DNA of 64,000 nt, from the NCBI GenBank assembly GCA_964016885.1, contig OZ024743.1, positions 11,780,001 to 11,844,000 of the forward strand, given 5' to 3'. The first letter of the stretch is position 1. Each line of letters starts with the position of its first letter. This document shows positions 40,112-60,476 of this stretch, one piece after another. The notes under the pieces are model-generated. The model made no database searches, had not been told where the DNA came from, and saw nothing but the letters and a program-made list of their open reading frames with translations. A program made the position numbers and the translations under genes. This DNA comes from Eledone cirrhosa (taxonomy: Eukaryota).

Positions 40112-40652
40112 TTGTCCCACCGCTTTCTCTTCGCACCGTTCGCCGTCGAGACCTCAGACGTACTTGGACCCCGTACTGCCGAGCTCCTCCACAAGATCGG
40201 TGCGTCGACGGTTCATCTGAGGAGGGATTCCCGCGAGGTGGGCGGCTGTTCCAGCGGATGCCACTGGCCATCGTCGGCGGGAATGCTTTTGCCGTCTTAT
40301 CCGGGGGCGTAGCACTTCTGCCCTCTTTTCCTAGGCCCAAATCCCAATCACCCCCTCTCAGTCCCCCCCCCCCCCTTCACCCCCTCCATTCACCCCCCCA
40401 TTCACCCCCCCCCCCCTCCCCCTTAATCCCCCTTCACCCCACCTTCACCTACCCCTCTCTTCTGCGACACCAGAGCTCTTGCTATCCCATACCCTTTCCG
40501 TTCTTTTTCTTCTTTCTTTCTCTCTTTTTTCTCTATATATCCCTATTCTTTCTTTCCTTTTGTTTCCCTTTTTTTACTATTGCCGTCATTATAGTTGCCA
40601 TTATTATTATCGGCCCTTATGGCTAATAAATGAAATCATTATTATTATTATT
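40112..40652 (+). mobile_element. CRE-clade non-LTR retrotransposon 3' fragment with (TTA)n tail
   Basis: FAPFAVET..LGP..L..IG and QRMPLAIVGGNA match the CRE RLE C-terminal pattern F.P.A.ET.G..G / QR.S.A..RGNA. A C-rich UTR, AATAAA and (TTA)n follow. Confidence 0.65.
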
Positions 40653-40987
40653 ACGGCCCTTTAGAGTCTGAGTCCAAATCCGCCGAGGTTAGCTTCGCCC
40701 TTCATACTTACGGGGTCGATAAAATAAAGTACCAGTAACGACTTACCCATCCCTCGAAATTGCTGGCCTTGTGCCTATATAAGAAACCATTATTATTATT
40801 GTTACTGTAAATAATATCATGTTTGTACAGTTTTTATCATAAATGTTGTTATTGATTGAATGGTAAGAATTAACAATAAATTATATGTAAAATATCGAAT
40901 GAGAACTAAGACATTTTGCTATATCACATTACATACAAAATAAATTGAATTCAATGATATGAATAAAGTTGATCACCGAAAACGAGA

Positions 40988-41058
40988 GCATCGGTTGTTC
41001 AATGGTAGAATGCACGCTTCCCACGTGTGCGATCCGGGTTCGATTCCCGGCCGATGCA
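40988..41058 (+). tRNA. tRNA-Gly(CCC), unit 1
   Basis: Cloverleaf with anticodon loop TTCCCAC. Confidence 0.87.
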
Positions 41059-41855
41059 TAATTCTCTCTATACTTTTAGTTCTTGAAAACTCTTAGTTTG
41101 ATTTCAATACTTTAATCCTCTTGCTAGTTGTTGAATGTTCTAGTATGATTTCAGGGAATTAATTTCGTGGAATAAAAATGTCCTTGAGGAAACAAATATA
41201 TATTCAGCAATACAGTGTCAATCTTTAAGAGAGCATCAACATTCCGAATATTTTGAATTATTGTGGCATGGCTTGAGCCGCTAATTTTTATTTCATCAAA
41301 AGTAATTAGTATTCAAAAAGTTAAATCTCTCCATATTTATATTCTTGTGTAACAAATATTTCATTCATTTTACATAAGACATATTCTTTTCTTCACTTCG
41401 GTGAAATATTTTATAATCCTAGAATATAGAAATAGATGTTACTGGACAATGGAATGTATGTATCTTCATTTCATACCGAGACTTGATTCGTTGATTAGAA
41501 TTGTAATATGACGTTATATCTATGTATCTATCTAAAAAGAAAGACTAAGAATTATAGAGAGAGATCGCTAAATCGCCTAATGCTGTTCCTAGGGCATTGA
41601 TAATTTGAAATATCTTTTTCTCAAAACACTTACAGGACCATAAGTATTAAATGTGTAAAGTTTGAAAACAATCGGCTGGGTGGTTCTCGAGTTTTAGGGA
41701 GTCAGACTGACAGACAGACAGACATCATCAGTTGTAGATATATAAATTATACTCAGCTTAGTATTGAGTACCTTACTTACAGCGCTAAAAGTATAAAATG
41801 AACCCACTACACTCCAATGCTAGATATGTATAAAATCTATGCCAAAAGTTCGTAA

Positions 41856-41926
41856 GCATCGGTGGTTCAGTGGTAGAATTCTCGCCTGCCACGCGGGAGG
41901 CCCGGGTTCAATTCCCGGTCGATGCA
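41856..41926 (+). tRNA. tRNA-Gly(GCC), unit 1
   Basis: Canonical, with a G7-U66 wobble variant. Confidence 0.93.
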
Positions 41927-42634
41927 ACTCTTTTCTTTAAATTCGACCTCTGGAGATACCTTAATTTTATTTTAAGATGAGAGTCGGCTTACCAGCTTAT
42001 CAATAGTCATCTTTAATGTCAATAATTTTTTACAAGTTAGCTTGTTAACATGTACAGAAAGATTTATTCTGGAAGAAGCGCCATTTCTTTTGAAATCATC
42101 TTCAATAGATGTTACTGGAGAATGAAATGTATGCATCTTCATTTCATATCGAGACTTGATTCGTTGATTAGAATTGAAGCGTGATTTATAGGTTCAAATT
42201 TGACATTAATAGGCATATATATATATATATATAGAAGTGGTTACACAACACTTAGTTCACTATACCGAGAACAATTGTTTCACCTTCGCGGATCCTTAGC
42301 TCGTAAGCTAGGTAGAGTTCGTTCGTGTCTGTGTGTGTGTGTGTCGTTGTTACGCAATGCCGACGAAAGAAAGCCGCGTCGAAAGAAATACAAATCGAAA
42401 GAAAAATAAAAAAAAAGTCGAAAGATGGCGGCGCGGCGGTGGTTGTCGGAATGAATTGGAACGATCGAACGAACGAATGAACTCTACCTAACTCGTCCCA
42501 TGGACTGAGTGCTCTACCACTACGGATATTACCTTCCAGTTTTCTACCACACACACACACACACACACACATATATATATATATATATATATATATATAT
42601 ATATATATATATATATATATATATATATATATAT

Positions 42635-42828
42635 AACGAAGGAAATGTGGTAAGGAACCAGGTGGACCATAACGCACCAAAGTACTCAATACTTGAGGTA
42701 GTAGAGTGGGTAATAGGAACCAGTAAGACCCCGACAGCTGAGCTCAAGCCGTTTCGACGGCTAATTCTGGGCGGAATTAGCCGTCGAAACGGCCTGAGCT
42801 CAGCTGTCGGGGTCTTACTGGTTCCTAT
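42635..42828 (+). repeat. Hairpin-terminated element (56-bp arms), unit 1; also at 45476-45669 and 48322-48515
   Basis: Arms at 42713-42768 and 42773-42828 with loop GGGC, flanked by (TA)n. Confidence 0.9.
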
Positions 42829-43004
42829 ATATATATATATATATATATATATAAGAATTAAAATACTAGAGTATGTTGGAGTTAAACACTTTCATCATAT
42901 AGAAATGACAGTAAAGATATAGCTCAATGTAATTAAACAGAGCCGAAGAATTATGAAAATAAACCAAGTTTTTGGCTTGTATTGGCCGATAGTGCTTCTT
43001 ATAG

Positions 43005-57303: not shown

Positions 57304-57374
57304 GCATCGGTTGTTCAATGGTAGAATGCACGCTTCCCACGTGTGCGATCCGGGTTCGATTCCCGGCCGATGCA
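57304..57374 (+). tRNA. tRNA-Gly(CCC), unit 7
   Basis: As unit 1. Confidence 0.87.
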
Positions 57375-58171
57375 TAATTCTCTCTATACTTTTAGTTCTT
57401 GAAAACTCTTAGTTTGATTTCAATACTTTAATCCTCTTGCTAGTTGTTGAATGTTCTAGTATGATTTCAGGGAATTAATTTCGTGTAATAAAAATGTCCT
57501 TGAGGAAACAAATATATATTCAGCAAGACAGTGTCAATCTTTAAGAGAGCATCAACATTCCGAATATTTTGAATTATTGTGGCATGGCTTGAGCCGCTAA
57601 TTTTTATTTCATCAAAAGTAATTAGTATTCAAAAAGTTAAATCTCTACATATTTATATTCTTGTGTAACACACATTTCATTCATTTTACATAAGACATAT
57701 TCTTTTCTTCACTTCGGTGAAATATTTTATAATCCTAGAATATAGAAATAGATGTTACTGGACAATGGAATGTATATATCTTCATTTCATACCGAGACTT
57801 GATTCGTTGATTAGAATTGTAATATGACGTTATATCTATGTATCTATCTAAAAAGAAAGACTAAGAATTATAGAGAGAGATCGCTAAAACGCCCAATGCC
57901 GTTCCTAGGGCATTGATAATTTGAAATATCTTTTTCTCAAAACACTTACAGGACCATAAGTAATACATGTGTAAAGTTTGAAAACAATCGGTTGGGTGGT
58001 TCTCGAGTTTTAGGGAGTCAGACTGACAGACAGACAGACATCATTAGTTGTAGATATATAAATTATACTCAGCTTAGTATTGAGTACCTTACTTACAGCG
58101 CTAAAAGTATAAAATGAACCCACTACACTCCAATGCTATATATGTATAAAATCTATGCCAAAAGTTCGTAA

Positions 58172-58242
58172 GCATCGGTGGTTCAGTGGTAGAATTCTCG
58201 CCTGCCACGCGGGAGGCCCGGGTTCAATTCCCGGCCGATGCA
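58172..58242 (+). tRNA. tRNA-Gly(GCC), unit 7
   Basis: Canonical. Confidence 0.96.
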
Positions 58243-59178
58243 ACACTTTTTTTTTTAAATTCGACCTCTGGAGATACCTTAATTTTATTTTAAGATGAGA
58301 GTCGGCTTACCAGCTTATCAATAGTCATCTTTAATTTCAATAATTTTTTACAAGTTAGCTTGTTAACATGTACAGAAAGATTTATTCTGGAAGAAGCGCC
58401 ATTTCTTTTGAAATCATCTTCAATAGATGTTACTGGAGAATGAAATGTATGCATCTTCATTTCATATCGAGACTTGATTCGTTGATTAGAATTGAAGCGT
58501 GATTTATAGGTTCAAATTTGACATTAATAGGCATATATATATATATATATATAGAAGTGGTTACACAACACTTAGTTCACCATACCGAGAACAATTGTTT
58601 CACCTTCGCGGATCCTTAGCTCGTAAGCTAGGTAGAGTTCGTTCGTGTCTGTGTGTGTGTGTGTGTCGTTGTTACGCAATGCCGACGAAAGAAAGCCGCG
58701 TCGAAAGAAATACAAATCGAAAGAAAAATAAAAAAAAAGTCGAAAGATGGCGGCGCGGCGGTGGTTGTCGGAATGAATTGGAACGATCGAACGAACGAAC
58801 GAACGAACTCTACCTAACTCGTCCCATGGACTGAGTGCTCTACCACTACGGATATTACCTTCCAGTTTTCTACCACACACACACACACACACACACACAC
58901 ACACACACACACACACATATATATATATATATATATATATATATATATATATATATATATATATATATATTATATATATATATATATATATATATATATC
59001 TTTATGTATAGATATATATATATAAGAATTAAAATACTCGAGTGTGTTGGAGTTAAACACCCTCATCATATTATAGAAATGACAGTAAAGATATAGCTCA
59101 ATGTAATTAAACAGAGCCGAAGAATTATGAAAATAAACCAAGTTTTCGGCTTGTATTGGCCGATAGTGCTTCTTATAG

Positions 59179-59232
59179 CTTTACTTGCCCTGATGAGTCC
59201 TTAATAGGACGAAACATTGTTGGCTAATAAAG
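59179..59232 (+). ncRNA. Hammerhead ribozyme, unit 7
   Basis: Identical core to unit 1. Confidence 0.8.
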
Positions 59233-59582
59233 ACTTTTGATGTATTGAAGGCTTCTTTCGTTTATTTTCATAATATATATATATATATATATATATATAT
59301 ATATATATATATATATGTGTGTGTGTGTGTGTGTGTGTGTGTGTCCGTGCGCGTATGTATGCATATATTTAATACATTTTTAATATATATTTAATATATT
59401 TAATATTTTTAATTTTTGTGGCATGGCTTGAGCCGCTAATTTTTATTTCATCAAAAGTAATTAGTATTCAAAAAGTTAAATCTGTACATATTCATGAGAA
59501 CTAAGACAATTTGCTATATCACATTACATACAAAATAAATTGAATTCAATGATATGAATAAAGTTGATCACCGAAAACGAGA

Positions 59583-59653
59583 GCATCGGTTGTTCAATGG
59601 TAGAATGCACGCTTCCCACCTGTGCGATCCGGGTTCGATTCCCGGCCGATGCA
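59583..59653 (+). tRNA. tRNA-Gly(CCC), terminal copy with anticodon-stem mismatch
   Basis: Full length at the position where other units have the half gene. CCCACCTGTG gives a C-C mismatch. Confidence 0.72.
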
Positions 59654-60476
59654 TAATTCTCTCTATACTTTTAGTTCTTGAAAACTCTTAGTTTGATTTC
59701 AATACTTTAATCCTCTTGCTAGTTGTTGAATGTTCTAGTATGATTTCAGGGAATTAATTTCGTGTAATAAATATATATACACACATATATATATATATAC
59801 ATATATATATATATACACACATACATATATATATATACACACATTATTTTTATATATATGCATATATACAAATATCTATATATACACACATATACACATA
59901 TATATACATATATACAAATATATACACACACACACATGCATATACTTACATATATATACACACACATATACAAACATATATATACACACACATATATATA
60001 AACACATATATATACACACACATATATACACACACATAAATATACATACATATATATATACACACATATATATACACACATATATACACACACATATATA
60101 AAAATACATCCATACATACCCACATATATATATATACACATACATATACATACACATATACATATACATATATACATATATACATACATATACATATACA
60201 CACACATATACATACATATACACATACACAAATATATACATATATACATATATATGCATTTATATATACATACATATACATATATACACACATATACACA
60301 TACACACATACACACATATATACACACACACATATATATATATATATATATATATATACATATACACATACACAAATATATACATATATACATATATATA
60401 CATTTATATATACATACATATACATATATACACACATATACACATACACACATATACACATACACACATATACACA

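Follow-up and report, generated by a model that had tools for sequence, protein, structure and literature searches.

What does a self-cleaving ribozyme motif do in every unit of an array of tRNA genes? The question is raised by 64,000 nucleotides of Eledone cirrhosa DNA (GenBank assembly GCA_964016885.1, contig OZ024743.1, positions 11,780,001 to 11,844,000 of the forward strand; hereafter the window, to which all coordinates refer), in which each of the seven units of a tandem array combines two tRNA-Gly genes with a hammerhead ribozyme motif on the same strand. An earlier note on this DNA had proposed a retrozyme-like unit with tRNA cargo, perhaps mobilised by the reverse transcriptase (RT) of a Penelope-like element (PLE) encoded in the window, and had named as the simpler alternative a PLE remnant passively captured in a DNA-level amplification. 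It is this alternative that is supported by an empty-site paralog, the inversion within the insert that carries the hammerhead, the density of hammerheads in the window and the subfamilies of units. We therefore regard the hammerhead, with a probability of roughly 0.85, as a passive passenger, i.e. a short retroelement scrap beside tRNA genes that was copied along with them at the DNA level.

The hammerhead-bearing insert and its repeat family

The hammerhead lies in an insert of 244-247 bp within a (TA)n tract, and an empty target site for it is preserved in the window: at 15150-15690 both flanks of the insert recur (278 of 286 aligned bases on the left and 132 of 137 on the right are identical to unit 7, i.e. 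96-97%) without the insert. The same picture emerges from unit 5, as 2339 of its 2599 bases recur outside the array in the window at an identity of at least 85%, and the only gap of at least 20 nt without an outside copy, 53735-53983, is the insert. Paralogous tRNA-Gly cassettes on either side of the array also lack it (Table 1), and the region was therefore duplicating tRNA cassettes without the hammerhead.

The insert consists of two arms pointing apart, which share an inverted repeat of 15 nt (42953-42967 is the inverted copy of 43083-43097) and of which the left reaches about 99 nt further along the family sequence at its outer end, 42854-42952 lying beyond the right arm's end. The 3' end of the family lies 148-151 nt behind the hammerhead cut. 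No open reading frame (ORF) passes through the insert in family order: each of the three frames holds 2 to 9 stops, with 57-58 codons from helix II, and no ORF start is seen.

A search of public sequencing runs with the insert listed 14 runs, of which seven contain part of it (four studies, four organism labels, best share 0.59). Four of the 14 (X1, X4, X5 and X12), which may be relatives of the species and not the species itself given a best word share of 0.59, were aligned to the 244-bp insert at 80% likeness. X1 has 396 contigs on the insert (135, 146, 80 and 35 at an identity of 99% or more, 95-99%, 90-95% and under 90%, respectively), X12 has 1332 reads (122, 271, 563 and 376 in the same bands), and X4 and X5 have two contigs each; moreover, 213 X12 reads pass from 42857 into (TA)n. 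Hence X1 and X12 reveal a dispersed multi-copy family that ends in a microsatellite. All three joints listed connect opposite strands, from 42952-42967 to 43082-43097 (two X5 contigs, one from X4 and one X12 read), and in six X1 contigs 42967 is followed by the reverse complement of 43068-43082. A common but differing sequence stands before 42967 in 154 X12 reads and in one contig each of X4 and X5, and the X12 depth at 42953-42961 is 0.11+0.67, as against 217+33 and 69+16 in the neighbouring bins. Together with the 15-nt inverted repeat, these opposite-strand joints and differing upstream sequences mark a 5' truncation with an adjacent inverted arm.

The run copies have the order upstream sequence, hammerhead half, left half in the same direction and then (TA)n, while the array has the halves pointing away from each other, with the family's 3' end facing against the tRNAs. 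Since the hammerhead half is flipped in the insert, the hammerhead sits on the tRNA strand. The array insert is thus most likely a truncated, inverted copy of a many-variant repeat family, and the strand of the hammerhead, as observed in the earlier note, a by-product of the inversion. As X12 is a reduced-representation library based on restriction sites, the absence of the array junction from it is expected for any single locus. Among three findings that would together speak against its proposal, the earlier note had listed the hammerhead element being common genome-wide without tRNA association; this largely applies, as the element is common without the array's structure in X1 and X12.

We propose the following course of events. 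An ordinary animal tRNA-Gly cluster would already have been expanding by local duplication when a high-copy hammerhead-bearing retroelement, probably of the Penelope type, inserted into a (TA)n tract some 0.7-0.9 kb behind a Gly(GCC) gene. The site existed empty, as the paralog shows, and the insert is truncated, its two family arms pointing apart with the 3' end against the tRNAs and the hammerhead half flipped onto their strand. Both strands of the cut target may have primed reverse transcription, in the manner of inverted PLE insertions or of the twin priming of L1; such priming would yield the two arms. A 2.6-kb segment with two tRNA genes and the insert would then have been duplicated in tandem and expanded by unequal exchange, as the relationships of the units suggest. 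This course is consistent with published work. Strong 5' truncation, a bias towards microsatellites and, in many cases, an inverted copy adjoining the 5' end have been described for PLE insertions (PMC8557442); a purified PLE protein cleaves and extends the two strands of AT-rich targets, with reverse transcription beginning about 85-92 nt behind the cut of its hammerhead, whose cleavage is not required for insertion in vitro (PMC11167929).

A hammerhead motif among tRNA-Gly genes

ARAGORN and Rfam agree on seven Gly(CCC)/Gly(GCC) pairs on the + strand, spanning 40988 to 58242, and together with our topology scan they confirm that all seven units carry both genes and an identical hammerhead core on the same strand (CUGAUGA, a 5-bp helix II, GAAA and a GUU triplet), as the earlier note had observed. 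Helix III comprises 2 bp with a 3-nt loop and lies inside the near-palindrome AACAUUGUU, and helix I reaches beyond the three pairs adjoining the core; CUGANGA, GAAA, NUH and helices I-III in type I order are found in 7 of 7 units. This topology exceeds chance, as a type I topology of any kind arose in 7 of 1000 dinucleotide shuffles of unit 1 and one with a 5-bp helix II in 1 of 1000. In Rfam the best among the matches listed is Hammerhead_HH9 at 43000-43070 (29.1 bits, E 2.6e-5, gathering threshold 52). A comparison with the Rfam models, as had been suggested, thus gives the motif a match by E-value; the suggested model, Hammerhead_1, is absent among the clan matches listed, and no hammerhead in the window reaches the gathering score, all 23 of the 23 matches that do being tRNAs. 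The exact core pattern had 0 matches in metagenome contigs and 0 in viral contigs.

The 32-nt core is unvaried across the seven units. With 48 of 2430 ungapped columns varying among units, 0.63 changes are expected in it and the probability of none is P(0)=0.53; its identity is therefore uninformative and was rejected as a sign of selection, and the seven copies are one event and not seven independent ones.

The array itself, with multi-kb head-to-tail units (2869, 2842, 2820, 2589, 2599 and 2597 bp for the first six) and intact tRNA genes with their own terminators, has the makeup of a tandem tRNA gene array. A run of at least four T starts 5 nt downstream of Gly(GCC) in all seven units, seven such runs lie between this gene and the hammerhead, which are 849-1089 nt apart, and 20-24 occur in a whole unit. 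RNA polymerase III (Pol III) transcripts terminate at T-runs, and the tRNA transcripts would therefore end long before the ribozyme, which would rarely if ever be part of one. Read-through of several units by RNA polymerase II (Pol II) is possible. Were it to occur in an array built at the DNA level, the hammerheads might by accident cut some of the transcripts, giving rare unit-length RNAs or terminating transcription between the tRNA cassettes. No nucleotide or helix of the core is missing; the folding energy of helix III is +3.7 kcal/mol as a hairpin but -2.3 kcal/mol between two copies, which suggests that self-cleavage would need a dimer, and tandem copies could supply the partner at a spacing that would resemble that between the two pseudo-long terminal repeats (pLTRs) of a full-length PLE (3.4-4.4 kb Naiads body, PMC8557442). 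Nevertheless such activity is distinctly unlikely: in the minimum-energy fold (-13.8 kcal/mol) the core pairs with itself, and the active monomer fold (-5.3 kcal/mol) is less stable by 8.5 kcal/mol; the triplet is GUU in the array but GUC at the same place in 196 of 571 X12 reads; the core bears no sign of selection, as shown above; and an AATAAA starts 5 nt behind the cut. In addition, eight of nine predicted retrozyme dimers were uncleaved in one in vitro test (bioRxiv 10.64898/2026.07.22.740005), and the hammerhead of PAc was uncleaved without protein, with no RNA-seq ends at its cut site (PMC11167929). As a dimer the ribozyme may well still cleave in vitro, an ability that it would owe to its family and that would have no function in the array. 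That a captured Penelope-type hammerhead is active in the tRNA array, its read-through RNA being cut into 2.6-2.9 kb pieces, some circular and each with two tRNA genes, and that it insulates the cassettes or fed their amplification, appears very improbable to us; unit-length cut or circular RNA, if real, would mean that a transposon ribozyme had been domesticated to process the tRNA array of its host.

Some further features of the array may be recorded. The Gly(CCC) and Gly(GCC) genes differ at many positions, with compensated anticodon stems. The Gly(CCC) copies at 43857, 52108 and 54707, which belong to both blocks of units described below, have in common a G-to-T change, a sign of gene conversion or of recurrent change. 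Directly left of the array, 40078-40640 has a pyrimidine-rich tail, an AATAAA and an (ATT)n within which the array starts, and a motif that may be that of the C-terminus of CRE-type non-LTR elements. A GC-richer 320-bp repeat with an internal inverted repeat lies between TA tracts at 42234-42550 and again at 15160-15447, with no Rfam match at gathering score at either place. The fold-back insert that shares the (TA)n tract in units 1-3 belongs to a TA-inserted family with a near-perfect 55-bp fold-back (42636-42825 and 19080-19300), which at 19.1 kb breaks an endonuclease-like frame; in our scan it contains CGAAAC and no complete hammerhead core. Rfam microRNA matches at 42714-42827 are below thresholds, reflect this fold-back insert and were set aside.

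Growth of the array and hammerheads elsewhere in the window

The earlier note had placed the junction of the units at a tRNA half and not at the cleavage site, and this holds for the six internal junctions, at about 460 nt from the cut. The tRNA half retains its own upstream flank there, and the junction is therefore not a case of RNA-level tRNA capture. After microsatellites had been shortened, alignment of the units showed that units 1-3 differ by 0.08-0.27% and units 4-6 by 0.04-0.16%, the two blocks being 1.31-1.59% apart. Unit 7 is 0.62-0.82% from units 4-6, and six variable columns group it with units 1-3; 24 of the 48 variable columns separate units 1-3 from units 4-7, and units 4 and 7 are mosaics of both blocks. 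These blocks, the mosaics and the fold-back insert confined to units 1-3 thus speak for stepwise duplication with exchange and against a single RNA-circle concatemer, and we infer from the sequences that the array grew at the DNA level.

The same figures bear on whether the array might be partly an assembly artefact, with units 1-3 and 4-7 being two haplotypes placed in series, or near-identical units having been over-expanded. A difference of about 1.4% between the blocks would be within the range of alleles, and units 5 and 6 differ by only 0.04% and units 2 and 3 by 0.08% outside microsatellites. However, microsatellite lengths vary between neighbouring units, units 4 and 7 combine both blocks and the window is without N, so that we regard an artefact as unlikely; even if it were true, an array of three or four units would stay and the origin of the hammerhead would be unchanged.

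Growth through RNA, in which read-through transcripts would be cut into 2.6-2.9 kb monomers, circularised and reinserted as concatemers by a PLE RT, gains from the intact-looking hammerhead on the tRNA strand of each unit, from the presence of the insert only in amplified units and from the TA-rich microsatellite that adjoins the right end of the array at 59767. It is nonetheless exceedingly improbable. Retrozyme units measure 150-450 bp (PMC7229834), 150-300 bp (PMC7761336) or 51-972 bp in a search limited to a 1000-bp period (bioRxiv 10.64898/2026.07.22.740005), as against 2.6-2.9 kb here; the blocks, mosaic units and insert nested in three units fit stepwise DNA exchange; the array does not end at the cut site; the 3' end of the family is itself directed the opposite way; and each unit holds its 20-24 T-runs. 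Nor was a fresh inverted head for the array found, as the inverted paralogs to its left are only 77-79% alike, and to its right only microsatellite pairs stood among the best 25 of 2585 matches. An 8-nt AT-only match near both array ends, noticed by eye, was not taken as a target duplication. Outside the array the window holds other recent local duplications, 21200-21572 with 22996-23370 (99%) and 19575-20034, inverted at 32333-32797 (94%).

The PLE that had been proposed as the mobiliser of the array has on the - strand an 863-aa RT/endonuclease-like frame with a weak RVT_1 match in Pfam (19.7 bits against a cut-off of 29.6), and the nearest Atlas clusters of this frame, at 0.96-0.98, carry HTH_animal, GIY-YIG and RVT_1; its upstream frame has no Pfam match. 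By sequence, the element is real, yet it is not the insert's evident partner. The insert shares no sequence with the ends of the PLE (best match 13 of 15 nt, E 0.79), and a different hammerhead-like core, seen by eye at 33753 (-), stands at the PLE's own 3' end; with no 3' sequence shared, the PLE was rejected as the mobiliser. Diverged repeat copies (72%) flank it at 32944-33412 and 38214-38646, the former with a hammerhead at 33333 (+) that has a long helix III and the latter with a decayed core. A probable truncated PLE on the + strand lies between TA-rich tracts at 60478-62102, includes the hammerhead at 61909 and has no match to the insert; a Cys/His-rich motif at the end of its frame is presumably that of PLE endonuclease ends, the frame at 60102-60698 being without a Pfam match. 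The window also contains three LINE-type frames with strong RVT_1 matches (10773-14105, 25148-28888 and 29012-31522), the first a 1110-aa open frame with endonuclease, RT and PHD finger.

Hammerheads are common outside the array. In 44,867 bases the scan found type I motifs with a helix I of at least 5 bp at 24444(-), 24587(+), 33333(+), 39308(-) and 61909(+), to which the core at 33753(-) adds a sixth by eye; those at 24444 and 24587 are arms of one fold-back insert and that at 39308 is their relative. A match at 22264, with a helix I of 3 bp and a helix II broken at the first pair, was excluded from the count as probable chance. This amounts to about one hammerhead insert per 8-9 kb, and a duplication of 2.7 kb would therefore catch at least one by chance 26-30% of the time, or 14-17% on a given strand, a rough estimate, as it is based on a single window. 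Of the five scanned motifs, four resemble the array in having an AATAAA that begins 5-6 nt behind the cut and would be the element's poly(A) signal. The fold-back insert at 24256-24686 lies in (TA)n with its two hammerheads opposed and arms 97% alike; its left side is about 89 nt longer to the next TA tract, an offset resembling that of the array insert, and it has a single-arm relative at 39199-39336 (-). Fold-back inserts in (TA)n thus occur at 24345-24686, within that stretch, and also at 19093-19231.

Several observations weigh against the hammerhead being a mere passenger from a Penelope-type element. None of the listed pieces from the runs spans the whole insert, the runs are coded and may stem from relatives, and their 150-nt reads are too short to place other copies of the family relative to tRNA genes. 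The offset of about 99 nt between the arms exceeds the 30-40 bp expected of a PLE 'tail' (PMC8557442), and the HH9-type extended helix I is closer to a canonical retrozyme motif than to the most reduced PLE motifs. No autonomous element with the insert's 3' end was found in the window, and the Penelope type of the insert, resting on anatomy and not on linkage to an RT, is not proven. A decayed tRNA gene is found 557 bp from one of the outside hammerheads, that at 39308. Finally, the insert is confined to amplified units and every unamplified paralog in the window is without it, which a role in amplification would also predict, a weak argument from one event.

If the hammerhead is a passenger, the locus is a worked case of how chance can produce a retrozyme look-alike where hammerhead inserts occur about once per 8-9 kb of a genome, and it cautions against screens in which any hammerhead-bearing tandem repeat is labelled a retrozyme. 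The two-arm insert with its neighbouring empty site would further provide a small in-genome example of the priming from both target strands that is seen in vitro for PLE protein.

Table 1. Coordinates of the array, its insert and related features in the window
Feature	Position	Strand	Remarks
Tandem array	40639..59771	+	Seven units plus short eighth piece with full Gly(CCC)
Unit starts	40644, 43513, 46355, 49175, 51764, 54363, 56960	+	
tRNA-Gly(CCC) starts	40988 (unit 1: 40988..41058), 43857, 46699, 49519, 52108, 54707, 57304	+	ARAGORN and Rfam
Eighth tRNA-Gly(CCC)	59583	+	ARAGORN and Rfam
tRNA-Gly(GCC) starts	41856 (unit 1: 41856..41926), 44725, 47567, 50387, 52972, 55571, 58172	+	ARAGORN and Rfam
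Unit junction	43479..43510 (unit 1)	+	5' half (32 nt) of tRNA-Gly(CCC) joined to (TTA)n head of next unit
Type I hammerhead with extended helix I, unit 1	43005..43058	+	Cut 43047/43048; AATAAA 43052-43057
CUGAUGA core starts	43016, 45862, 48708, 51307, 53900, 56497, 59190	+	Topology scan, 7 of 7 units
Predicted cut after	43047, 45893, 48739, 51338, 53931, 56528, 59221	+	
Hammerhead-bearing insert between (TA)n tracts	42854..43097 (unit 1); 45697-45943, 48543-48789, 51142-51388, 53735-53981, 56332-56578, 59025-59271	.	Two arms pointing apart
Left arm	42854..42967	-	Family's 3'-terminal part, read on minus strand
Right arm	42967..43097	+	Family's upstream part including hammerhead; inverted relative to left arm
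190-bp fold-back insert	42636..42825	.	Same (TA)n tract; units 1-3 only; 81% relative at 19105-19300
Empty-site paralog	15150..15690	+	Both insert flanks joined by bare (TA)n(TG)n tract
Paralogous Gly(CCC) and Gly(GCC) cassettes without insert	7417..9347	+	7417-8124 93%, 8729-9347 97% to unit 5
Inverted paralogous Gly(GCC) cassette without insert	63046..63778	-	96%
Penelope-like element	33959..37578	-	863-aa RT/endonuclease-like frame 33959-36550; overlapping upstream frame 36484-37578

Comparison with known systems

Hammerhead-bearing pLTR remnants of PLEs have been described before (Cervera and de la Pena 2014; Lunse et al. 2017, as cited in PMC7761336 and PMC8557442). The array insert resembles them in its type I hammerhead with a weak palindromic helix III, in being a short, truncated insert in (TA)n with an inverted second arm, and in belonging to a dispersed high-copy family. 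Its 3' end, about 150 nt behind the cut, is also of the same order as the RT start of PAc, 111-118 nt into the ORF with the cut 26 nt in (PMC11167929). It is unlike them in that its arms overlap by 15 nt only, with an offset of about 99 nt instead of 30-40, in its extended helix I and in having no autonomous partner found in the window.

With animal non-LTR retrozymes (PMC7229834; bioRxiv 10.64898/2026.07.22.740005) the array shares tandem units, one same-strand type I hammerhead in each and a low GC content. However, the units of those elements measure a few hundred bases, whereas the 2589-2869 bp of the array units are to 90% tRNA-cluster DNA and repeats present elsewhere without a hammerhead, and the hammerhead lies in an inverted insert. 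A full-text search that left most subscription journals outside its scope turned up, by title or start of abstract, no literature on tRNA arrays with a hammerhead or other self-cleaving ribozyme.

R2 elements in ribosomal DNA arrays (PMC3414825) are likewise a case in which tandemly arrayed structural RNA genes harbour the ribozyme of a retroelement. R2 is site-specific in 28S genes and its 5' ribozyme cuts it out of a co-transcript made by RNA polymerase I, whereas the insert described here lies in a spacer microsatellite and the tRNA genes would give no co-transcript. A further parallel is the human tRNA array at 1q23.3, which has a 7.4-kb unit in 4.5 copies that are over 99% alike and variable in copy number (PMC2588610). 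Both arrays consist of few copies of multi-kb, tRNA-bearing units of high identity (98-99.9%), amplified at the DNA level, and the unit of Eledone cirrhosa is distinguished by the scrap of a hammerhead-bearing retroelement and by the tRNA half at which the units join. Hence, the array most likely works like an ordinary tandem tRNA array with a retroelement passenger.

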